From a virus (Duplodnaviria > Caudoviricetes): a DNA stretch of 40,302 nt. Where the stretch lies: positions 1 to 40,302 of IMG/VR virus record IMGVR_UViG_3300030104_002640; one strand, 5' to 3'. The notes under the pieces were generated by a model. That model was not told the origin of the DNA. It saw nothing but the letters and a program-made list of their open reading frames with translations, and did no database searches. Position numbers and translations under genes: made by a program. Shown here one piece after another: positions 5,732 to 38,952 of this stretch (positions are counted from its first letter, which is position 1; every line of letters begins with the position of its first letter).

Positions 5732-7012
5732 TTATTGATGAATCAGAGATGCAACTGTATTAGCTTCTTTCCTTTTTTTATCAATGTTTGGCAATTTAAA
5801 GTTATAAATATCATTAACTGCTTGGGTTGTGTGTCCAACATCTTGTTTAGTATCCTGTCCAATAGATTCTCTGATAGTAATAACCATTTTTCTTAAACTA
5901 TGAGGATTAATATTTCCATCAATCCCAACTTTATTTCCAAATCTATTTAAAATTCTTTTTTGAAAATTACGACTATTAATAGGAGTACAACCACTTTGAC
6001 TTGGAAACAATAACCATCCCCATTTAAAATCTTCCTTATATCCATTACGAGAGTTTAATTCATCTAAATGAATATTTAAAATTTTTCTACATTCATCAGA
6101 TAATACCAAAGTTCTTTTCCCAGCTCTAGTTTTTGGAGTCATTTTTAATTCTCCAGTATTTGTATTAAGAGTTTTTGTAATTCTAAAAATACCTTTTTCT
6201 CTGTCATATTGATCTTGGGTTGCAGAAAAAATTTCCCCTGGTCTATTTCCTATTTCTGACCATAAGCTGGTCATTGCAAAATGTTGGTAATTATAATTTT
6301 TAATAGCCAGTAATAATTTACCAATTCTTTCCAGCATATCACTAAAACCACCTTGAACCATAACTGGATCTGGTTTTGTTTCTTTAAAATCAGCTTTTAT
6401 ACTATGATAATCTGAACGAACAACATTTTCAAAAGGATTATTAAGTAAATTTAATTCTTCCTTTCCTAATGCCCATTTAAACATTCTATTCATTAAATTA
6501 AATGAGTTACCATTATTTCTTACACCAATTTTACCATCTGGAGTTTTTGTTGATCCATCGTAGTGTGTAATTTTATTTAATTTATCACTTAACTCTGTAG
6601 CAAGGGGGGTTGTCATTTCGTTTATTTTATAGTTACGAAAATATTGTCCTTTAATTTTTATTCCATTCTCACGATCTCCAGAAGTTTTATTATCATCTCT
6701 AAAGTCATAAGAACCTAAAACAATATTAGCACAATATTGATAATCTATTTCACAAGATTTACTAATTGGTTTTGTTCTATTTAAACAATGTTCAAGATAA
6801 AGATCAAAAAGTTTATTAACTGTAATGTACTCTAAATTGTAAGTGCCATTATCAATTTGTTTTTTTATTTTTATTCTTTCTTCAATACATAAATCATAAT
6901 CAGAATTTGAAAATCTTTTAACATTTTTATTCTCATTATCATGTACTTGGAAAAACCATTTTGATCTTACTTTCCATTCTCTTATTTCAGTAATTTTATA
7001 TCGATTCTTCAT
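5732..7012 (-). CDS. int: Tyrosine recombinase/integrase
   Basis: Catalytic set: G-N-R-P-G-E (R), TPKT (K), PHSLRK (HxxR), VGHT (H), DIY (Y). Confidence 0.93.
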   Translation of the reverse strand: MKNRYKITEIREWKVRSKWFFQVHDNENKNVKRFSNSDYDLCIEERIKIKKQIDNGTYNLEYITVNKLFDLYLEHCLNRTKPISKSCEIDYQYCANIVLGSYDFRDDNKTSGDRENGIKIKGQYFRNYKINEMTTPLATELSDKLNKITHYDGSTKTPDGKIGVRNNGNSFNLMNRMFKWALGKEELNLLNNPFENVVRSDYHSIKADFKETKPDPVMVQGGFSDMLERIGKLLLAIKNYNYQHFAMTSLWSEIGNRPGEIFSATQDQYDREKGIFRITKTLNTNTGELKMTPKTRAGKRTLVLSDECRKILNIHLDELNSRNGYKEDFKWGWLLFPSQSGCTPINSRNFQKRILNRFGNKVGIDGNINPHSLRKMVITIRESIGQDTKQDVGHTTQAVNDIYNFKLPNIDKKRKEANTVASLIHQ

Positions 7013-15600: not shown

Positions 15601-15771
15601 ATGGATGAACACATACAAGCTGCAGTATTTTTAAACGAAACTACTAATACTGTGAATATAGAATTATCAAATTTTGAAAACTCAACAGTTGCTATGGAAG
15701 CTGCTAATCTAATTATAGCAGCACTAGGAATTAAGGTTGTAGAGAACACTAATAAGGAAACAGTACATTGA
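15601..15771 (+). CDS. 56-aa hypothetical protein
   Basis: MDEHIQAAVFLNE...KETVH*; TTGA overlap with the methylase start. Confidence 0.6.
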   Translation: MDEHIQAAVFLNETTNTVNIELSNFENSTVAMEAANLIIAALGIKVVENTNKETVH

Positions 15772-16301
15772 TACCTTTTCCAGACAAAAAATATAACATT
15801 ATTTATGCTGATCCAGCTTGGCATTTTAAACATTGGAACGATGATACAGTTACAAGAAAAGCACCTTATGAATTAATGTCAAAAGAAGATATTAAAAATC
15901 TTCCAATTCAAGATATAGCAGAAAAAGATTGTATTTTGTTTATTTGGGTTACTTTTCCAAAATTATTAGATGGATTAGAAACAATTAAATCATGGGGTTT
16001 TGAATATAAAACTTTAGGTTTTAACTGGGTTAAAAAAAATAAAAAAGCAGATTCTTTCTTTTGGGGTTTAGGATATTGGACAAGATCAAATAGTGAATTG
16101 TGTTTAATTGCTACAAAAGGAAAACCTAAACGAGTATCCATGGGAGTTCATCAAATTGTGTATGAGCCAATTAGAGAACACTCACGAAAACCAGATTGTG
16201 TAAGAGATCGCATAGTAGGACTATGTGGCGATCTTCCACGAATAGAAATGTTTGCAAGACAAAAAACACCTGGCTGGGATTGTTGGGGGAATGAAATATG
16301 A
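15768..16301 (+). CDS. MT-A70 family adenine methyltransferase (orphan)
   Basis: YNIIYADPAW, LFIWVT, SWGFEY, GYWTRSNSELC, HSRKP, RIEMFAR, GWDCWGNE. Confidence 0.9.
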   Translation: MIPFPDKKYNIIYADPAWHFKHWNDDTVTRKAPYELMSKEDIKNLPIQDIAEKDCILFIWVTFPKLLDGLETIKSWGFEYKTLGFNWVKKNKKADSFFWGLGYWTRSNSELCLIATKGKPKRVSMGVHQIVYEPIREHSRKPDCVRDRIVGLCGDLPRIEMFARQKTPGWDCWGNEI

Positions 16302-26397: not shown

Positions 26398-29007
26398 ATG
26401 GTACAAATTCCAGTCTTTACATCTCAATCTTCTCCTAAACTAACAGCACCAGTTACAAGGGGAGTGCCTAATCTTGTTGGAGCAGCAATCCTGCCTTATG
26501 AACAAATATCTCGTTTAGGTAATACAATTTTAGATGTTGGACAAAAAAAATATCAACAAGAATTAAATTTTGAAAATCAAAAATATGAAGCAAAACTGGA
26601 TCATGATTTAAACTTAAAAAAATTAGCTTTAGATTTTGAATCAGAAGAATATGCAATTCAAAAGCAACATGAGATTGATTTATTTAAAGAAAATGAATCG
26701 TATAAAACTAATCTTTTAAAATTATCAAATGAATTAAAAGGCGAGTTTGAAATTAATAAAATAAAGATCCAACGAGAAAATAAAGTTAAACAAACAATCG
26801 CTGACTCCTGGGAACAAATTTATACACTCTCTGATATTGCTACTCGAGATCCAGATACAGAAAATGCTTTAAGTAATTGGGATAATGGAATTAAAAATTT
26901 AAGAAATGAATTAACCAGAGGAATTAAAGATCTTTATACTAAACAATTAATTGAACAAGAATTAGATGAAAATATTGCATTAGAGAGAGCAAAAGTTTCT
27001 TCTAACATTAATAAAAATGTTTTAGATCAATCAGAAATTATTTTTCAAAATGAAGTTGAAACTTTAAAAAATAATATTATTCGTAACCACTCACACTTTG
27101 ATATTATTAGTTTAGAAAAATTAATTGGCGAAAACTCTATTATTCATCAAAGAGCTGCTAAAGGAGAATTAAAATTAAAAGGAGTACCAGTAACTTCAGA
27201 TATTTATATTGAAGCTATTAAAAAAGATATTTTTACTGTCATGGGCGAAAACATGGCAAAAGACCAACCAGAGAGATTTAAGTTTTATAATCGACAAGGA
27301 TTTTGGGATGATAAATTAACACCAGAACTTATACAATCTTATGAAGATAAAGCTGATACAGCCATTGCATCAAAACTATCTAATCAAATTTCTAATCTTA
27401 AAGCTTCTGCTACCATACTAACAACATCGATTGATAATTTTATAAATCCATCTAAACCAGAATTTTTTGGCGATACTAATCAATACTTTACTTACAAATT
27501 ACAAGCTGAAGATATGATTAATGATTTAGTGTCTGTTGGAGAAAATGAAAAAGCTCAAAAACTTGCAATTAAACTTGATGCTTTAAATAGTGCTTTTATT
27601 AATCATAATGAAATTAAAAGATTGCAAGGATTACCTTTGGATGAAGTACAAGATATTTGGAGTTCTTTTAATCAAGAAGTTAAAAACAAATCTGGAACTG
27701 CTACAGTTAATTATTTTGGTAAAGAATTACCATATAATATTGGAACAGATCTTCTTGGTCATATTGAAAAAACCATGAACTATATGGAAACAGAGATTGG
27801 TGCTGGTCGTGTCATTGAAATGGCAGAAAGTTTTGGCATGAATATTCCAACTATAAATTGGATGGAATCTGATGCAAATAAGTTTGCACAAGAAGTTGAA
27901 ATATATCAAGCTTCTATGGGTTTTTTAATGAATAAATATGGTTTACCAGAAATGCCATTTTTTAGAGAATCAGATTTAGCACAAATTAATGAAGTTTTTA
28001 AAAATGGAAGCAAACAAGATATTTTACAACTAGCAAGTAATGTTTCAAAAATGTCTGGTATTTATGCAAATGATGCCTTTACTGATTTATCGAATAACTC
28101 CCCAGCTATGGCACACCTAGGTAAATTAATGAATATGAACAAAGGTGGTATGACACAGGCTACCGAGCATATTGTTGATGGTTGGATTGCAATGCGAAAT
28201 GATGAAACTGCATCATTAGTTGGTAAAGTTGGATTAAATGAAATAGGTAATCCTTATCTGGAAATATCTGAAACTATGCTGGGCGATATTTTAACAAATA
28301 CACCAGAAACTTTTACGCAAATAACAGATTCTTCTAAATTGATATTTGCTAATATGATTGCAGAAAATTCTGAATTACGACAACTAATTATTGATGATAA
28401 TGCAAATAATAAAAAACTACAAGAAGCCTGGAGAATGTCTATTCAATATGCAGCTGGAATGGTTGTTGATGGATCTGGAGCAAAAGGTGGAATAGAAAAA
28501 TTTAATGGCAAACCAATTATTATTCCACAAGAAAAACCAAATGGAACTTTAGATCAATTTAATTTAGCTGGTCAATTTAAAAGTAATGATGCTCCATCAT
28601 TAGAATTATTATTAGAAAATCATTTAACTGATGAATTATTATATGATGCAACAGCAACATTAAGTGTTGATGCAAGTGGAAGATCTGAAGATGTATTTCT
28701 TAATGGAATGCCATCTGACTTTGATGCAGATGGAAAATTTGTTCATTATATAGATGCAAAAGAATTATTTGATAATTATGAAAAAATTTATTTAGAAACA
28801 AATGAGTATGGCGAATACTTTATAACTTTTGGCGATCCTGGAGATCCAGCACATGAATATTATAAAACAAAAGATGGTAAAAAAGTTACTTTAAATATTA
28901 ACCGCATTTTACCAGCATTAATTAAATCTTATAAAGCAAATCCATCTGACTCAATAGATCCAAGAGATACTAAATTAAATATACCAACATATACAATGAT
29001 AAAATGA
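26398..29007 (+). CDS. Internal virion/ejection protein (gp15-like)
   Basis: Large helical protein starting MVQIPVF; position in the ejection block. Confidence 0.68.
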   Translation: MVQIPVFTSQSSPKLTAPVTRGVPNLVGAAILPYEQISRLGNTILDVGQKKYQQELNFENQKYEAKLDHDLNLKKLALDFESEEYAIQKQHEIDLFKENESYKTNLLKLSNELKGEFEINKIKIQRENKVKQTIADSWEQIYTLSDIATRDPDTENALSNWDNGIKNLRNELTRGIKDLYTKQLIEQELDENIALERAKVSSNINKNVLDQSEIIFQNEVETLKNNIIRNHSHFDIISLEKLIGENSIIHQRAAKGELKLKGVPVTSDIYIEAIKKDIFTVMGENMAKDQPERFKFYNRQGFWDDKLTPELIQSYEDKADTAIASKLSNQISNLKASATILTTSIDNFINPSKPEFFGDTNQYFTYKLQAEDMINDLVSVGENEKAQKLAIKLDALNSAFINHNEIKRLQGLPLDEVQDIWSSFNQEVKNKSGTATVNYFGKELPYNIGTDLLGHIEKTMNYMETEIGAGRVIEMAESFGMNIPTINWMESDANKFAQEVEIYQASMGFLMNKYGLPEMPFFRESDLAQINEVFKNGSKQDILQLASNVSKMSGIYANDAFTDLSNNSPAMAHLGKLMNMNKGGMTQATEHIVDGWIAMRNDETASLVGKVGLNEIGNPYLEISETMLGDILTNTPETFTQITDSSKLIFANMIAENSELRQLIIDDNANNKKLQEAWRMSIQYAAGMVVDGSGAKGGIEKFNGKPIIIPQEKPNGTLDQFNLAGQFKSNDAPSLELLLENHLTDELLYDATATLSVDASGRSEDVFLNGMPSDFDADGKFVHYIDAKELFDNYEKIYLETNEYGEYFITFGDPGDPAHEYYKTKDGKKVTLNINRILPALIKSYKANPSDSIDPRDTKLNIPTYTMIK

Positions 29008-29531
29008 ACAAAATAGATTGGAATTTTATATCCGAATTAGAGGGTAAGGGAGCAAATACTGGTTATGTGCCAACAAAAAATTCTGGTGTTACAGTTGCAA
29101 CTGGATTTGATCTAAAAGAAAAAGATGAAGAATTTTTATTAAAAATTGGCATCTCCGAGCCAACTGTTGCAAAGCTTCAAAACTTTTGTGGACTCTCTGG
29201 AGCTGAAGCTTCAGCTGTCGCAAAAGATTTAGTATTAAGTGATAAGGAAGTTTTGGAAATAGATCTGTGTAGTAAAAAATATTATGCTACAAGAATAATG
29301 AACCAATATAATAGCAGAGATCCAAAAGAAACTTTTACAAATTTAACTAAAGGACAACAAACAGTTATTGCTTCTGTTGGTTTTCAGTATGGTAGTTTTT
29401 CACGAACTCCATCATTTATTAAACACGCAGTTAATTCTGATTGGGATTTAGTGGATCGAGAGCTGCGAAATTTTGGCGATGACTTTGGTACTCGAAGAAA
29501 TAGAGAGGCAGAATACTTATGGGTAGTGTAG
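29004..29531 (+). CDS. Pesticin C-terminal-like muramidase (lysozyme fold)
   Basis: IDWNFISELEG...GYVP..NSGVTVATGFDL...QTVIASVGFQYG...ELRNFGD.F.TRRNREA. Confidence 0.8.
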   Translation: MNKIDWNFISELEGKGANTGYVPTKNSGVTVATGFDLKEKDEEFLLKIGISEPTVAKLQNFCGLSGAEASAVAKDLVLSDKEVLEIDLCSKKYYATRIMNQYNSRDPKETFTNLTKGQQTVIASVGFQYGSFSRTPSFIKHAVNSDWDLVDRELRNFGDDFGTRRNREAEYLWVV

Positions 29532-32500
29532 ATATTCCTAAAGATAAAGGTTTAGAACTTCATATTACAAAAACCATTTATCCAGATTCAAAACGAGTAG
29601 GTACAACTCCTACAAAAACTCCTTCTGGTTTTTTTTCAGATCCAACAAATAGAAATTATGGAGGTGCTACAGCTCTTACTTCGCCTAAAACATTAGGAGA
29701 TAATTTTGAATCTTCTTTTAGAGATTTAATAGATTTTGGAAGATCAGTATCTTCATACCAGGGAAAAGTAGAAGATTGGGAATTAGTCCAAAATGAATTA
29801 GAAACAAAATTTGGAATAGAGATTCCTCATTGGGAAGATTACATTCCAGAAATTGATGATCAATACAGATGGTCAAGACCATTTTCTAATTTTGGTGTTG
29901 ATGGAGCTGGTGGAAATATGATGCCAGAAGCTCCATTTGAAGTTAAAAAAAAATATTTAGAAAATTTAATTTCAATAGAATTAGACAAACTTGGGCCAGA
30001 AGCTAAAAAAAATTTTAAGGGATATGATCATTATTTTGATTTAAGAAAAAAACAAGCAGCTGATACACAAGAACAAATGGCTCTTAATATGCAGTATGCT
30101 GATAGTGGCTGGGATAAATGGGGAGGAATGTTATCTGGTACAGCTGTTGCTTCATTTCATGATCCACTTATTCTTGGCACTCTTCCTTTATCCATGGTGT
30201 ATGGGTGGCAAGGAGGAATTGTTTATGCCACAATGCGAACAGCTGCAATCGAAGCAATTATTGCTGGTGGTGCAGAAACTATTATACAATCACAAGTAGT
30301 ACCTTACAGACAATCACTAGGACAAGATTATGACTGGTCGGATGCAGCAAAAATAATTGGAACTGTATCTGCAACAAGTGGTGTATTTGCTGGAACTCTT
30401 ACAGCTAGTGTTAAAGGTTCAGCACAATTATATAAAAATGCACAAATGGCTTTAGCCAAAACAAATCCAGACATACGCAATAAAATTATTGGTAAAGAAT
30501 TTTGGAAAGCAGTTAATGAAAGAGGTTTTATAGAATTAACTGATATTGATAAAGCTACTGGAAATATAAAATTATTAGATAAAGTTCCTCCAGATGTTGC
30601 TTGGGAAATAATAAATAAAAATATTTCTGCTTTAGGTAAAAAGGAAATGCTTTTATTATTTAGAACATTACCAGATTCAATACAATTACACGCACCTTAT
30701 CAAAGTGCTGCTAGAGAATTAGAAGAAAAAATTTTAGAAGATGTTGATAATCCATTATCCAAAAACATAGAGGGTAATGTTGAACACATGGAGAGAACTA
30801 ACTCAACTTTGGAAAGTGTATTAAAAAACGAAGAACCTAAAATTCCAGAACAACCTAACTCTCAAATAGTCCTGGATGAAAAAAGACCAGTAATGAATCA
30901 TGTTAAAATGAATCCAGATGATATTGAAGTAGATGCAAAAACTTTTCAATTTAAAACTGGAGGCGATAGTAAAGGAGTTTTAACAACATTAAAAGGTATT
31001 GATAAATGGGATCATAATGCAGCTGGTACTGTTATGGTATGGGAAAGAGCTGATGGAAAATTTTTTATTGCTGATGGTCATCAACGATTAGGACTAGCAA
31101 AAAGAATTAAATCAAAAGATCCAAAACAAGATGTTTATTTAATGACAGTTGTTAGACGAGAAGCTGATGGCTGGAATGCAGAAGATGTTATGGTTGAGGC
31201 TATGACAGTTAATATTGTTGCTGCAACTGCAAAAGCAGAAGATGTGGCAAGAGTATTTTTACGAATGGGAGAAACTCACACAGCTAATATACTTGCTGGA
31301 AGAATTAAACCACAACAAGCTCTTTATCAAAATTCTCTTGGTTTATATAGATTAGGAGATGAAGCATTTAGATATTGGCTTAAAGGCGGAATAAAAGATA
31401 ATATTGCAGCACAAGTTGGACATATTGTTGATGATCCAGAATTAGCAATAAATGCTTTAAAACTTTTAGAAAAAGCAAAACCAGCTAATATTAATGAAGC
31501 AAGATCAATAATTAGATCTTTTTTAGATGCTGGAATAATAGAAACCACACAAACCGATATGTTTGGTGCTAGAATCATGAAACAGTCATTGATTGTAGAA
31601 AGATCCAAAGTTTATAGTAGTGCTTTACGAGAGCTAAAAAAAGATAAAACAATCTTTAAAGCTCTTGTGGAAAACGATGAAGCTATTATAAAAAGTGGTA
31701 GAAATAAATTAGATACAAACTATAATGTAGAAAAGGCAGAACAATATGGCATCATCATACACAAAATCGAAAAACTCGCAAATCGCAAAGGGCGACTCTC
31801 AGACGAGCTTACTGCAGCAGCAAAACTCTGGAAGTCTGGAAGTAAGCGAAAAGCAGTTGAGTCTTTTAAAAAAGCTGTCTACGAGTCGATTGAACGAGGC
31901 GATCACGAGGGGATTACTCCAAGCGGAAGTGAACGCAGTATCTTTGCTTCGCAATCGGAAAGTCCAGCTCGACAAAAACCAAAAGAAAACATAATCACAG
32001 AAAAGTTAAAGGTACATGACGATCCTCATGATACCAATGTAGCTGTTAAAGAAGCTGATGATCAGTTAGATATACTTAAAGAGGAGATCAAATCTGGAGT
32101 TGCTTCTGGAGAACGCAAAACATCTGATACAACAAAACCTTTAGAAAGTACCCAGGATGAATTTTTCCAAACAACAACTGCCTCTCCACCATCAACTGTA
32201 TTAGCTAAAGCTAAAGGTACTCCATCAGCATCTCGAATACTTGATGATAATTCAATCGGAGAATTTAAAACTGTTTTAGGCATAAATTATAAAATACTAC
32301 AAATATCTGATAGTGTCGATAATTTATATAAATTAGCAAACAAAAGTATCAAAGATATTGAAGCCTCTATTACTAATATAGCGATAAAATTTAAAAATGC
32401 AAAAGTTATTACAGATATTAAGAAAAAATCAGAATTAAAGAGAAAACTAAAAAATAGGCAAAATGACTTTGGAAAAGACTATGATATACGATTTATTGGC

Positions 32501-33085
32501 GATATTGCTAGAGGTCGTATCGTTCTTGAAAATTTAGATGAAGTTGTTGATGGTTTAAATATCGAAGGATGGCTGCGACAAAATTATAAAATAATTTCAA
32601 AAAAAGATTATTTTACAACACCAAAAGAGAGTGGATATAGAGCTACTCATTATCAGCTTGTAACAGAAGATGGATTGGCATTTGAGTTACAAGTACATCA
32701 TAAAGATTTATTAAATATTTATGATAAATTAAGAGATCTTCCAAGCTCTGCATATAATAAATTTAAAAATAGAAAATTATCAAAAAAAGAAAAAGCTGAA
32801 AGAATTAAATTAGTTGCAAAAGAAAAGAAAATTTTTGATGATACTTGGAGTAAAATTCAAGTTGAACAAAAAGGGTTACCAGAACAACGAGCAGTCGATA
32901 TTGGTTTATTTGATGCAACTGCAAGAAACCAATTAGATTTAACCGATGAAGTTGTAATGGATATTAAAACTGGAGCTGATGGAGAATTAGTACCAGACAC
33001 AAAAACATTAAAACAAGTTCTTGATGATGTTGAAGAAGATGACAAGATCATTAATTTCTTAAAAGACTGTCCAGGAATATCATGA
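29519..33085 (+). CDS. Polyvalent internal virion protein with ParB-like and RelA/SpoT synthetase-like domains
   Basis: VWERADGKFFIADGHQR (ParB/Srx-like); IKKKSELKRKL, IGDIARGRIV, KDYFTTPKESGYRATH, FELQVH (RelA_SpoT-like). Confidence 0.8.
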   Translation: MGSVDIPKDKGLELHITKTIYPDSKRVGTTPTKTPSGFFSDPTNRNYGGATALTSPKTLGDNFESSFRDLIDFGRSVSSYQGKVEDWELVQNELETKFGIEIPHWEDYIPEIDDQYRWSRPFSNFGVDGAGGNMMPEAPFEVKKKYLENLISIELDKLGPEAKKNFKGYDHYFDLRKKQAADTQEQMALNMQYADSGWDKWGGMLSGTAVASFHDPLILGTLPLSMVYGWQGGIVYATMRTAAIEAIIAGGAETIIQSQVVPYRQSLGQDYDWSDAAKIIGTVSATSGVFAGTLTASVKGSAQLYKNAQMALAKTNPDIRNKIIGKEFWKAVNERGFIELTDIDKATGNIKLLDKVPPDVAWEIINKNISALGKKEMLLLFRTLPDSIQLHAPYQSAARELEEKILEDVDNPLSKNIEGNVEHMERTNSTLESVLKNEEPKIPEQPNSQIVLDEKRPVMNHVKMNPDDIEVDAKTFQFKTGGDSKGVLTTLKGIDKWDHNAAGTVMVWERADGKFFIADGHQRLGLAKRIKSKDPKQDVYLMTVVRREADGWNAEDVMVEAMTVNIVAATAKAEDVARVFLRMGETHTANILAGRIKPQQALYQNSLGLYRLGDEAFRYWLKGGIKDNIAAQVGHIVDDPELAINALKLLEKAKPANINEARSIIRSFLDAGIIETTQTDMFGARIMKQSLIVERSKVYSSALRELKKDKTIFKALVENDEAIIKSGRNKLDTNYNVEKAEQYGIIIHKIEKLANRKGRLSDELTAAAKLWKSGSKRKAVESFKKAVYESIERGDHEGITPSGSERSIFASQSESPARQKPKENIITEKLKVHDDPHDTNVAVKEADDQLDILKEEIKSGVASGERKTSDTTKPLESTQDEFFQTTTASPPSTVLAKAKGTPSASRILDDNSIGEFKTVLGINYKILQISDSVDNLYKLANKSIKDIEASITNIAIKFKNAKVITDIKKKSELKRKLKNRQNDFGKDYDIRFIGDIARGRIVLENLDEVVDGLNIEGWLRQNYKIISKKDYFTTPKESGYRATHYQLVTEDGLAFELQVHHKDLLNIYDKLRDLPSSAYNKFKNRKLSKKEKAERIKLVAKEKKIFDDTWSKIQVEQKGLPEQRAVDIGLFDATARNQLDLTDEVVMDIKTGADGELVPDTKTLKQVLDDVEEDDKIINFLKDCPGIS
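31746..31994 (+). CDS. Nested +1-frame 82-aa ORF inside the polyvalent protein
   Basis: Host-frame GC3 rises to about 30/82 codons versus about 5/80 at 31322-31561; no TTA codons; TATAAT at 31721-31726 and AAGG upstream of the ATG. Confidence 0.6.
   Translation: MASSYTKSKNSQIAKGDSQTSLLQQQNSGSLEVSEKQLSLLKKLSTSRLNEAITRGLLQAEVNAVSLLRNRKVQLDKNQKKT
32062..32283 (-). CDS. Nested antisense 73-aa ORF, candidate antitoxin/immunity protein
   Basis: Globular-looking IRDADGVPLALANTVDGGEAVVVWKNSSW; the host frame here is an S/T/P-rich linker; TCGACA-N17-TATTTT lies 7 nt before the ATG. Confidence 0.55.
   Translation of the reverse strand: MPKTVLNSPIELSSSIRDADGVPLALANTVDGGEAVVVWKNSSWVLSKGFVVSDVLRSPEATPDLISSLSISN
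32291..32319 (-). promoter_or_regulatory. Sigma70-like promoter for a leaderless antisense transcript
   Basis: -35 TCGACA (32319-32314), 17-nt spacer, -10 TATTTT (32296-32291); TATAAT also at 32291-32286. Confidence 0.5.
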
Positions 33086-35595
33086 GTTTATTAGATTGTA
33101 TTATTAAAGGTGTAGATCAAGGCATTATTCCAGCTCGAAAGCAAACAGATATGTTTGATAATTTTGATGCACGAAAAAAAGAATATATGAAAAAAGGAAT
33201 GTCGGAAGCTGCTGCGGAAAAACAAGCTGGATTAGATACTTTTGATAAAATTAAATTTGATAAAGCAAGAAAAATTACTATTGCAAATATACAAGCAAAA
33301 AAACAAGCAGAGTTTAATTATTTATTAGAAAATTCTGGGATGAATCCTGGCGAAATTATGGAAAGAATTGTTGCCAAAATGAATGTTAAAGAGGGTTTAT
33401 CAGAAATACGAAGTGCAGAATCAACAATAGAATTTTTTAGAGCTTTAGCACAAAGAGAATTTGGAAAAATATTACTTGAATATAATCAAACTATATCTGG
33501 TGGTGTAAAAAAGAAAGCTGGTCAAATTAATTTAATAAAAGAAATTTTCCAACCAGGTTCAACAAAAAATAAAGCTACACAAGAATTGGCATTAGCTTGG
33601 ATAAGAACATCTGAATTATTACGAAAATTATTTAATCAAAGAGGTGGTGCTATTTCTAAAATGGAGGGAAATTATTTACCACAATTCCATGATCAAACTG
33701 CTGTAGCAGCTGTACCTTTTGAAACTTGGAAAAAATTTTTATTAGAAAATGATTTACTCGATTTAGAAAGAATGGTTGATTATAGAACTGGAAAACCATT
33801 TACTAAAGAAACTTTAGAATTTGCTTTATTAGATGTTTATGAAACAATAACACAACAAGGTGCAAACAAACATACTCATCACATGGGGTATGGAAAAGCT
33901 CTTTATAATAAACGAATGGATCATCGTTTTATGCACTTTGCAAATGCTGATGCTTGGTTAGCCTATAACTCAAAGTTTGGTGGCGATAGTTCTCCTTTTG
34001 ATATTATGGTTGGTCATTTTGAAACAATGACAAGGGATATTGGATTAATGGATCGTTTAGGTGCAAATCCAGAAGCTCATTTATTATTTATGAAAAGCCA
34101 AGTTAATAAATGGGTACAACAACAATCAACAAAATTACCAGCAAAAGATTTTCAAAAACTTCAATCTAAAATGAATACTCATGTTTATGATGCAGAAGCT
34201 TCTTATATGTATTTAAAAGGACAACTTCATGCACCAGTTAATCAACGAATGGCTATATCAATGGCTGGATTAAGAGGTTTTCAAACAATGGGTAAATTAG
34301 GATCAGCTTCAGTTCTTGCTTTAGGCGATGCTAACTTTACAAGACACGCAGCTGCCTTTGCTGGTCTACCACAATTTCGTTTTATGCGAAAATGGTTAGG
34401 GGGAATATTAACTTTACCAGAAAGTGAAAGACGAAGAATTGCAGCAACTAGTTCTGTTATTGCAGAAAGTTATATGAATGTATCTTCTTCATCAGCAAGA
34501 TTTACAGCGGATATGACAGAACAACCAGAAATTATGAGAAGAATAACTGACTTTTCACTAAAAATATCTGGTCTTAACTGGATGACACAAGGAGGCAAAA
34601 ATGCAGCTGGTTTAGAATTTATGGCACAGCTTCACACTTTGCCTAGCAAATGGGATAAATTACCAAAAAAGTTTCAAGAATATTTATCTTTATACAATAT
34701 TAACAAAGAGTCCTGGGAAATTATAAAAAAAACAAAACCAAGAGAACCACAACCAAATGCAAAATTTTTAGATCCAACTGATATTTTAGATCGTCAAGAT
34801 TTAACAAAAGAAATGGCTTTAGAATTATCACAAAATTTAACAATGGCTTTACATCGGTTTGTTGATTTTGCTGTACCAAGTGTTAATGCAAAAGCAGCTA
34901 CATCTGGATTACTTTTTTTAGGTTTAGGTAAAACACGATCTGGTACTCCACAAGGAGAATTGATGCGAATGATTTTACAATTCAAACAATTTCCAATGAC
35001 ATTTCATCATACACATATCATGAGAGGATTATTAAGAAAAAATTTATCTGGTAAAGCAAAATATCTAGTACCTTTGGTTGTTTCAACAACATTAATGGGA
35101 GCTTTATCATACGAATTAAAACAAATTTTATTTGGTAAAGATATTAGCAATCCAGAAAAATTTAAAGATATTCGTTATTGGATGAATGCTATGATCCATG
35201 GTGGTGGTCTTGGTTACTTTGGCGATTTATTATTTGGTACTCGTTATAGTGTAGGCTCTGCTGCAGCTGGTGTATTAGGTGCAACTCCAGGAATGTTAAT
35301 TGATACAGCAGAATTAACTATTGATAATTTATATGAGGGATTATCATCTGATATGGAAATGAATTTAGGTGGAGATCTTGCTAAATATTTAAGACGACAT
35401 ACTCCAGGGGGTTCACATTGGTATTTACGATTAGCTTTGGAAAGATTAATTTTTGATACCTTACAATCAATGATCGATCCTAAATGGAACTCAAAGAAAA
35501 GAAGAAAAATTAAAAAAACAAGAAAAGTACAAAAAACAGATTTTTGGTGGCGACCAGGGGATGTTTCTCCCAACCGACCTCCAAGTTTTTTTTAA
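33082..35595 (+). CDS. Internal virion/ejection protein (gp16-like)
   Basis: YLPQFHD...GELMRMILQFKQFP...HGGGLGYFGD...FWWRPG. Confidence 0.78.
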   Translation: MSLLDCIIKGVDQGIIPARKQTDMFDNFDARKKEYMKKGMSEAAAEKQAGLDTFDKIKFDKARKITIANIQAKKQAEFNYLLENSGMNPGEIMERIVAKMNVKEGLSEIRSAESTIEFFRALAQREFGKILLEYNQTISGGVKKKAGQINLIKEIFQPGSTKNKATQELALAWIRTSELLRKLFNQRGGAISKMEGNYLPQFHDQTAVAAVPFETWKKFLLENDLLDLERMVDYRTGKPFTKETLEFALLDVYETITQQGANKHTHHMGYGKALYNKRMDHRFMHFANADAWLAYNSKFGGDSSPFDIMVGHFETMTRDIGLMDRLGANPEAHLLFMKSQVNKWVQQQSTKLPAKDFQKLQSKMNTHVYDAEASYMYLKGQLHAPVNQRMAISMAGLRGFQTMGKLGSASVLALGDANFTRHAAAFAGLPQFRFMRKWLGGILTLPESERRRIAATSSVIAESYMNVSSSSARFTADMTEQPEIMRRITDFSLKISGLNWMTQGGKNAAGLEFMAQLHTLPSKWDKLPKKFQEYLSLYNINKESWEIIKKTKPREPQPNAKFLDPTDILDRQDLTKEMALELSQNLTMALHRFVDFAVPSVNAKAATSGLLFLGLGKTRSGTPQGELMRMILQFKQFPMTFHHTHIMRGLLRKNLSGKAKYLVPLVVSTTLMGALSYELKQILFGKDISNPEKFKDIRYWMNAMIHGGGLGYFGDLLFGTRYSVGSAAAGVLGATPGMLIDTAELTIDNLYEGLSSDMEMNLGGDLAKYLRRHTPGGSHWYLRLALERLIFDTLQSMIDPKWNSKKRRKIKKTRKVQKTDFWWRPGDVSPNRPPSFF

Positions 35596-37735: not shown

Positions 37736-38635
37736 TTGACTTATATTGGACAACAGCCTAGCACTACTTTTGATTCTGGCATCCAGGATAGATTTACTGG
37801 TCTAACGACTAATACAGTAACTCTTAACCATGACATATCTGCTGAAGAAGATATACTTGTTGTATGGAATAATATTGTACAAGATAAGAATACTTATTCG
37901 GTTGGAGGTACTGGAAATAAAACTGTTACATTGGGTGGCACATTATCCTCATCGGATGTCGTAACTGTGTATTACTTAAATAAAGTAATGCAATCAGTTA
38001 ATCCTACTGCTGGTAGTGTTAGTTCTACTATTTTAGGTAGTGATATTTTATCTGGTCAAACTGATATTGGAGCAGATATTGCTGATGCAGATTTATTTTT
38101 AGTAGATGATGGAGCTGGTGGTACTGTTAGAAAAAGTGCTGCTTCAAGATTAAAAACTTATATTGGAAGTAACACTCCAGTTTTTGCAGCTTACTTATCT
38201 AATGACTCAGACCAATCTATTTCTGATTCTACTACAACTAAAATACAATTTGATGCAGAAAGAATTGATACTGCTGGTGCTTTTGATACATCAAATTATA
38301 AATTTACTGTTCCGTCTGGAGGAGCTGGAAAATATTTTATTGTATGTAAAGTTAAATGTGGTTCTTCTCAACAAAATGATATTGTTGGAGCATATGTTCA
38401 TATTTACAAAAACGGAAGTACATATCATAGTGTCGGATATACAGGAGCTGGTTTTATTTCTGGAACTAAATATCCTATATTAGGAATGGGTTTACTTTGT
38501 TCTACAGTTATAGATTTAGCAGCATCTGATTACATAGAGGGTTATGGATATATTAAAACAAATGGTGCTGGTACACCTAAATTCCAAGAAGGAAATGATC
38601 AATCAACATATATAGAAGGATTTAAGTTATTATGA
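37736..38635 (+). CDS. Secondary tail fibre with C1q-like C-terminal domain
   Basis: TYIGQQP anchor; PVFAAY...TKIQFDAE.ID...FDTSNYKFTVP...GKY...IYKNGS. Confidence 0.8.
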   Translation: MTYIGQQPSTTFDSGIQDRFTGLTTNTVTLNHDISAEEDILVVWNNIVQDKNTYSVGGTGNKTVTLGGTLSSSDVVTVYYLNKVMQSVNPTAGSVSSTILGSDILSGQTDIGADIADADLFLVDDGAGGTVRKSAASRLKTYIGSNTPVFAAYLSNDSDQSISDSTTTKIQFDAERIDTAGAFDTSNYKFTVPSGGAGKYFIVCKVKCGSSQQNDIVGAYVHIYKNGSTYHSVGYTGAGFISGTKYPILGMGLLCSTVIDLAASDYIEGYGYIKTNGAGTPKFQEGNDQSTYIEGFKLL

Positions 38636-38952
38636 GTTCATTAGCTAGTAAAATAAAAATATACTTAGGTAGAGAACCAGATTTTACATCAGAAGTAAAA
38701 CTACAAAATGATGGTAGTGGAGATTACATTAAAGAATGGAATATATCTTCTGAAAAATCTAAACCAACAGATTCACAACTAAATGCTGCTGATAGCGAAG
38801 CTACTAAATTAGAAAATAATAATAAAATTCGTGCAACTAGAAGAAATTTATATGGAGATATTGGCGATCAACTTGATGAAATATTTAAAGATATAGATGC
38901 TTGGAAAACAAGAATACAAAAAATTAAAACGGATAACCCAAAGGAAGAATAA
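38632..38952 (+). CDS. Tail fibre chaperone-like protein (paralogue of 154..501)
   Basis: YLGREPDFTSEVKLQND...IRATRRNLYGDIGDQLD. Confidence 0.72.
   Translation: MSSLASKIKIYLGREPDFTSEVKLQNDGSGDYIKEWNISSEKSKPTDSQLNAADSEATKLENNNKIRATRRNLYGDIGDQLDEIFKDIDAWKTRIQKIKTDNPKEE

Follow-up and report, generated by a model that had tools for sequence, protein, structure and literature searches.

The window analysed here is the whole virus record IMGVR_UViG_3300030104_002640 (Duplodnaviria; Caudoviricetes; 40,302 nucleotides), and its element of interest is a gene for a 1188-residue multidomain protein. This protein contains a RelA/SpoT small alarmone synthetase (SAS) domain, and the linker ahead of that domain, conserved and rich in Ser, Thr and Pro, carries on its minus strand a nested open reading frame (ORF) of 73 codons that overlaps sense residues ~848–922 (Table 1). 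An earlier note on this DNA described the synthetase domain; the nested antisense ORF was missing from its reading of the locus.

Table 1. Positions of the features discussed, in the window unless a locus handle is given.
Feature	Position	Strand	Basis
Multidomain protein of 1188 residues, probably an internal virion (ejection) protein; acts as scaffold for a variable cargo slot	29519..33085	+	ORF, gene order
Conserved middle domain with invariant DGH-R motif	30896..31918	+	phrog_10691, E 6e-34; alignment
RelA/SpoT SAS domain (residues 925–1113)	~32291-32857	+	Pfam, fold, invariant residues
Antisense ORF, 73 codons; predicted antitoxin/immunity protein, unnamed family	32283-32062	-	Conservation, selection, complex model
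Sigma70-like site TCGACA-N17-TATTTT, ending 7 nucleotides ahead of the antisense ATG	32291..32319	-	Motif scan
Exchanged cassette (antisense ORF and SAS)	32040..32880	.	DNA identity to close relative L001
Type C/D antisense ORFs in related loci	L040:7989-8195, L041:8376-8573, L058:8124-8321, L019:8133-8342, L029:8460-8660	-	GGAGG site
Pesticin-like lysozyme gene	29004..29531	+	PF16754, E 5.6e-28
837-residue virion structural protein (phrog_684), following gene of the block	33082..35595	+	PHROGs; overlaps the stop of the 1188-residue ORF
Tyrosine integrase	5732-7012	-	

The four synthetase motifs named in the earlier note all lie in frame within the large ORF, with K968 (nucleotide 32420), D995 (32501), R1000, Y1040 (32636), H1044, E1056 (32684), Q1058 and H1060. 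The profile search and the fold match that the note had proposed as checks both bear it out. Pfam RelA_SpoT (PF04607) covers residues 967–1061 with an E-value of 2.8e-8 and 34.5 bits against a gathering cut-off of 27, and the best PDB sequence matches are RelP and RelQ (profile E 3.5e-12). The AlphaFold model of residues 925–1113 (predicted local distance difference test, pLDDT, 92) matches RelP in Foldseek at E 1.4e-9 and, by structural comparison, with Z 15.8 and a root-mean-square deviation of 2.7 over 163 aligned residues; the bifunctional SaEAS (Z 14.5), Tas1 (13.6), CapRel (13.5) and FaRel2 (8.5) are matched as well. K968, D995, Y1040, H1044, E1056 and Q1058 are invariant in 59/59 relatives. 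The domain is a RelA/SpoT synthetase fold with an intact catalytic core, a putative pyrophosphokinase; its placement at 32330..32860 stands, with the bounds now refined. In line with the note, no hydrolase family matches the 1188-residue protein or the 55 window ORFs scanned.

The note had taken the divergent residues as a hint of a non-standard substrate, to which by themselves they do not point. The leading Arg of Syn1 is indeed missing, and the canonical R-x-K-x3-S-x3-K pattern is not kept (D966, E972): the Ser is one position out of register, with E972 at the position of RelP S84. The Syn5 E-H pair is absent from the window subtype. This loss is mirrored elsewhere in the domain: 39 of the 59 relatives have the Syn1 Arg together with a Gly three residues after the catalytic Asp, whereas the other 20 have no Syn1 Arg and an Arg at D+3, which suggests that the D+3 Arg compensates for the missing one. 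The Syn4 position varies among the same relatives (H 22, S 20, R 12, Q 4, K 1), and the Y-x-x-x-H of Syn3, whose His is a guanosine-associated signature (PMC12226406), is invariant (59/59). Compared with RelP/RelQ, the best structural and profile match, the equivalents of K80, K88, D107, R112, Y151, H155, E174 and Q176 are kept, but R78, S84, R178 and the Syn5 pair differ, the score is 25.8 bits against an NCBIfam cut-off of 320, and the domain is embedded in a phage protein. Against the Apk2 signatures RYT, GxN and YH, the window has RGR (Syn2), AxH (Syn3) and VH (Syn4), i.e., two partial matches and a Syn3 of RelA/SpoT homologue (RSH) type, so that the signature reads as mixed, Apk-like at Syn2 and Syn4 and RSH-like at Syn3. 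If the enzyme is active, (p)ppGpp is the likeliest product, at a little above even odds; (p)ppApp or a mixture is possible at distinctly lower probability, and tRNA modification is unlikely.

The SAS domain occupies a slot behind the middle domain, whose content differs among related proteins. In 74 contigs with the scaffold the slot holds a Zeta-toxin-like P-loop kinase (25; e.g., L013, L025, L030, L053 and L066), an SAS (31), no cargo (15) or an ART-like domain (1), and is cut in 2; since the search patterns favoured SAS types A/B, these counts are not frequencies. The table of 74 leaves out L014, whose contig ends ahead of the slot, and L003, which lies on the contig of L001. Different cargo sits on scaffolds that are 90–96% identical, and the slot is a swappable cargo site of the scaffold protein. 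The 31 SAS contigs comprise 11 of the window-like type A/B, 18 of type C and 2 of type D; the divergent types C/D are assigned to SAS from motifs (DVARGG/GYFDRK/EIQIW in type C) and weak profile matches (10 of the 18 type C contigs have E-values between 1e-4 and 1e-11). The ART-PolyVal-like cargo (L027:7555-8574) has E 0.002, below the cut-off. Searching for loci with the SAS as a single sequence gave no match, and tblastn against cultured phages returned only three weak matches to the type A SAS and not one to type C. By eye, the slots of L026 and L072 have an extra domain with a DGNST motif ahead of the type C SAS.

The antisense ORF accompanies the synthetase and not the other cargo. Homologs lie at the equivalent place and phase in distinct loci, with an ATG or GTG start conserved beside the start of the SAS, and also in a lineage that lacks the middle domain. 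Either of the two antisense profiles (A/B or C/D) matches 31/31 SAS contigs and 0/41 contigs with Zeta, empty or ART slots, and these negatives are informative. In a further set of 98 loci, which includes re-fetched contigs, the A/B profile matches 96, and the two misses start at a contig edge. In Zeta slots, neither inspection by eye nor the two profiles revealed a conserved antisense ORF resembling an antidote, though an unrelated one could escape both.

The antisense frame shares codon positions 1 and 2 with the sense frame, and third positions were therefore used for a selection test. Both parts were present in 109 loci; once duplicates had been dropped, along with loci that were truncated, frameshifted or contained N, 64 remained, from which 27 disjoint pairs were formed. 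Inside the ORF, third-position changes that are silent in the sense frame and nonsilent in the antisense frame occur at 0.31 of the doubly silent rate (17/946 versus 144/2506), whereas the same ratio is 1.01 outside it (226/5035 versus 755/16993) and 1.11 within the SAS (nominal p 1e-7). The opposite class, silent in the antisense frame alone, is raised about 3-fold inside the ORF. Sense His and Gln codons are preceded by a C-ending codon, which gives an antisense Trp and not a stop, in 126/156 cases inside the ORF versus 262/2727 outside, and only 8.4% of equal-length windows elsewhere are stop-free. The antisense ORF is under purifying selection in its own frame.

Ahead of its start is a sigma70-like site, from which a leaderless antisense transcript may arise. 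A site scoring at least 9 precedes the antisense start in 46/63 homologous loci versus 2.8% of 5405 control windows. Four metatranscriptome runs, read as contigs, contain scattered low-depth pieces, one of which (32130-32301) takes in the antisense start and the greater part of the ORF. Strand and level are unreadable and this region was used in choosing the runs, so that these RNA pieces are not evidence of antisense transcription.

The synthetase and the antisense ORF are also exchanged together. Relative to L001, the window is 93–100% identical in DNA over the 540 bases up to ~32040 and 40–73% identical from 32040 to 32880, and the bins downstream return values of 100, 63 and then 97–98%. 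By part, identity between this pair is 98% for the scaffold, 47% for the SAS and 55% for the antisense ORF, and the corresponding values between L008 and L080 are 100%, 44% and 50%. The antisense ORF and SAS are exchanged jointly, as one cassette, among related phages.

The predicted 73-residue protein folds in AlphaFold (pLDDT 85) as a small beta-meander with two helices. It has no match in Pfam, PHROGs, NCBIfam, PADLOC, PDB sequences or Foldseek, and the best structural comparison has Z 3.2, which is not proof that the fold is new. At E<=0.001 the family has 90 representatives, distant homologs included, and some of the distant members (P0083-P0142) form the C-terminal domain of a hydrophobic protein that looks membrane-like (P0113, P0122) or occur in tandem (P0123). 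Modelled together, the SAS and the 73-residue protein score 0.87 in three runs, and the best control scores 0.00; the mark applied to such scores is reached by 116/157 solved pairs and 2/215 mismatched pairs. At least 95% of contacts agree among the runs and the partner has pLDDT of at least 89. The modelled contacts comprise K976, D995, the G-loop, Y1040, H1044 and the C-terminal helices, i.e., the acceptor side, and the 73-residue protein is thus predicted to bind the acceptor site as cognate antitoxin. A solved Tas1-Tis1 complex exists, which makes memory of it in the model conceivable, though the 73-residue protein shows no Tis1 match.

In types C/D an antisense ORF of 66–84 residues lies 3' of the SAS, whereas in types A/B it lies 5'. 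A Shine-Dalgarno match of at least 5/6 precedes 20/23 of these ORFs, with the start picked among few candidates. Between A/B and C/D antisense proteins the hhalign probability is 15% with shallow alignments and below 4% with deeper ones, which does not establish homology, and the C/D ORFs are possibly a second, independent family of nested antidotes. The C/D proteins may resemble IapK.

Gene order makes the 1188-residue protein likely to be an internal virion (ejection) protein. Its gene is flanked by internal virion proteins (phrog_308, phrog_418) and the lysozyme on one side and by phrog_684 on the other, and at the equivalent position the genes of HTVC203P and Skadi-4 are annotated 'putative internal virion protein' and that of SPN1S hypothetical. 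The N-terminal domain has no hmmsearch match to SPN1S_0018, HTVC203P gp46 or Skadi4_11, and the virion location therefore rests on gene order. The fusion to a virion protein claimed in the earlier note holds as to position among internal-virion genes, but the 1188-residue protein itself has no profile match that would make it one; no MuF or head-morphogenesis match was found for it in Pfam or PHROGs. A ParB/sulfiredoxin-like label for the middle domain, for which the DGH-R motif is the sole basis, was unconfirmed, with no ParB match in Pfam or PDB. The lysozyme is a separate gene in the window and is fused N-terminally to the large protein in several relatives (P0006, P0007, P0009-P0012, L005).

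The scaffold varies beyond its slot. In the alphaproteobacterial L189, L191, L193 and L194 it extends to 2,400–3,700 residues, with helicase- and methylase-like motifs seen by eye, and L196 has a weak SAS match ahead of the middle domain. In L104-L142 and L157-L174, proteins of ~800–870 residues have the N-terminal domain, the antisense ORF and an SAS with the canonical Syn1 Arg, and the middle domain is missing; the SAS of this lineage is only 24–29% identical. A contig of a cultured bacterium, Bradyrhizobium sp. NAS80.1 (L187:3630-6953), carries the scaffold and a type C SAS, behind which the antisense frame is open, and is a possible experimental system.

The large protein resembles the phage polyvalent proteins of Iyer et al. 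2017, in which RelA/SpoT and Zeta domains are listed and an alarmone response on injection is proposed (PMC5512222). Like these late-gene proteins, which are mosaics of lysozyme, ParB-like, RelA/SpoT, Zeta and ART domains, it has at least two domains and mosaic effector content and lies among late virion genes. There, RelA/SpoT is named for phages infecting Spirochaetes and for those of epsilon-proteobacteria, whereas the lineage here is related to pelagiphages and has a predicted nested antidote. A characterised parallel is the MuF-fused Apk2, an SAS virion toxin with an immunity gene (PMC10083569; PMC12226406). There, and by prediction here, an SAS is fused to a virion protein of a temperate phage, in a variable toxin slot, with a small cognate acceptor-site blocker. 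In contrast, MuF is absent here, the toxin is internal and not C-terminal, and Syn3 has His and not GxN; the predicted antidote is nested antisense instead of being a downstream, co-oriented IapK/Tis1-like gene, often with Aph1, and no hydrolase accompanies it. Tas1/Tis1 of the type VI secretion system and FaRel/AT2faRel share the fold (Tas1 Z 13.6) and the acceptor-site neutralisation predicted here (PMC11782079), but the carrier differs, and the 73-residue protein has no sequence or fold match to Tis1, a weak test for so tiny a model. With SAS domains in phage virion proteins already published, the synthetase by itself is a member of a known theme. The predicted new element is a protein antidote fully nested in antisense inside its toxin gene, for which we found no precedent in the openly accessible literature searched or in the main text of PMC5512222, where 'antisense' and 'overlapping' have no match.

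We put at about 0.62 the probability that the large protein is packaged and ejected, that its SAS would produce an alarmone from nucleotides, with (p)ppGpp the likeliest, and that the nested antisense protein is the cognate antitoxin. The large gene would be expressed late, so that an antidote protecting the producing cell or lysogen would need a sigma70-type promoter of its own. The 1188-residue protein would be packaged in the virion and ejected into the next host, where unfolding on ejection may strip the antidote from the toxin. An alarmone burst early in infection would damp host transcription and translation until newly made antidote ended it, and a lysogen would be protected against the toxin of kin phages that share its cassette. 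The stringent-like state on injection that the earlier note had suggested is kept here in conditional form; an alarmone response had already been proposed for polyvalent proteins (PMC5512222). The analysis gave nothing that speaks for or against the role in the lysis/lysogeny decision that the note had also named. Nesting has a plausible rationale: the toxin lies mid-protein, ahead of a conserved C-terminal tail, so that an immunity gene in its usual place downstream could not be exchanged along with it, whereas with a nested one toxin and antidote can recombine together, in frame and as a single unit. The nested gene makes the locus a candidate toxin–antitoxin (TA) cassette, since a small gene, predicted to be the antitoxin, is linked to the toxin as in type II TA modules of toxic SAS (toxSAS). 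At a little above even odds we would extend this to marine and alphaproteobacterial podophages in general, which may eject an alarmone-synthetase toxin from a swappable core-virion slot, each cassette with an opposite-strand antidote of an unnamed fold under its own promoter, an entanglement that would have arisen at least twice (5' in A/B, 3' in C/D) and would give kin-specific immunity among temperate SAR11-type phages.

Several observations weigh against this interpretation. In cultured phages the N-terminal domain matches by profile only a hypothetical ortholog in DVV-SI2 and no annotated virion protein. The positive co-occurrence calls are partly circular, the profiles being built from the same ORFs, and many of the contigs are near-duplicates. 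An antisense frame that has codon positions 1 and 2 in common with the sense frame is the one most often open by chance, and on types C/D the selection test is not significant (ratio 0.45 versus 0.69, p 0.29, 7 pairs). The sigma70-like site is, in the window alone, within chance (2 sites versus 2.5 expected) and may partly shadow conserved sense codons. Over all pairs, identity in the antisense ORF correlates no less with that of the scaffold (rho 0.83) than with that of the SAS (rho 0.79), so that linkage explains most of the covariation. Syn1 of the window subtype is degenerate at D966 and E972 and its Syn5 is missing, and the swap between Syn1 Arg and D+3 Arg is possibly one event. The alignments used to score the complex were our own, and the calibration applies to them only approximately. 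Motif swaps did not switch the specificity of Apk2 (PMC12226406), which makes a product prediction from motifs weak.

Among other accounts of the locus, the strongest, which we nonetheless regard as unlikely, keeps the cassette and has the enzyme make (p)ppApp or both alarmones, with ATP depletion as for Apk1, Apk2 and FaRel. The D+3 Arg and Syn4 His match the Apk signatures RYT and YH, acceptor-site immunity is the Tas1/FaRel pattern, the folds of Tas1 and the bifunctional SaEAS are close, and the characterised virion-linked SAS toxins make (p)ppApp. Yet both Apk-like residues vary within the family while the Y-x-x-x-H of Syn3 does not and is not GxN, the nearest folds and profiles are RelP/RelQ, and the window has no match to an Aph1-type hydrolase. 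It is improbable that the SAS pyrophosphorylates tRNA CCA ends and so blocks translation, as do FaRel2, CapRel and PhRel, with the antisense protein again the antitoxin. The Lys-rich domain, the CapRel match and the missing Syn5 would fit such an enzyme, but in toxSAS that modify tRNA the antitoxin is reported to block the donor site, and in those that make nucleotides the acceptor site (PMC11782079), and the model puts the partner on the acceptor side; FaRel2 is a poorer match, and the stretch that would hold its N-terminal tRNA-binding helices is here the low-complexity overlap region.

Equally improbable in our estimate is a cassette that is not delivered and acts in the producing cell, as a prophage TA or abortive-infection module released when another phage stops antidote synthesis. 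The phage has an integrase, the SAS matches the PADLOC candidate PDC-S33 (E 2e-10) and the antidote has a promoter-like site of its own; against this, the toxin is embedded in a protein of the late structural block, with no Met within residues 925–1113, and shares its slot with other effector-like cargo, as in virion-delivered polyvalent proteins. We give very little credence to the antisense ORF being a shadow of the conserved sense linker, or the SAS a relic, in an otherwise ordinary polyvalent protein. A frame with two codon positions in common with the sense strand does yield many spurious ORFs, the product has no family or fold match, and the RNA data are uninformative, but the third-position test, the bias to Trp over stop, the conserved start, the confident fold, a complex score far above the controls and the absence of the ORF beside other cargo all argue against this account.

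Whether virion-fused alarmone synthetases are injected, and to what effect, is posed as an open question in PMC10083569, and the cassette of toxin and predicted antidote offers a simple test of it. Standard annotation drops such nested antisense genes, and other 'orphan' toxin domains of phage virion proteins may hide immunity genes in the same way. The 73-residue protein is a new candidate SAS inhibitor fold, in a cassette carried by phages related to a marine group of very high abundance.

The virus record is complete, with genes (Pfam, PHROGs) that include terminase, portal, capsid, tail tube, tail fibre and a tyrosine integrase; the integrase makes the phage likely to be temperate. Its capsid is 64–67% identical to those of HTVC010P-type pelagiphages and the gene order matches; the integrase is likewise found in the temperate members of that group (PMC8477408). 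The regions examined in four cultured isolates of the group are without this scaffold, SAS and antisense ORF, and PMC8477408 makes no mention of SpoT, alarmone or toxin. No SAR11 genome among 24 GTDB loci carries the 1188-residue gene, so that the host, likely SAR11, is only inferred; the window sequence is represented in marine metagenome runs. An MT-A70 family methyltransferase is encoded between the small and large terminase genes (15768-16301), and two small XkdW-like genes lie near the record ends (154-501 and 38632-38952).

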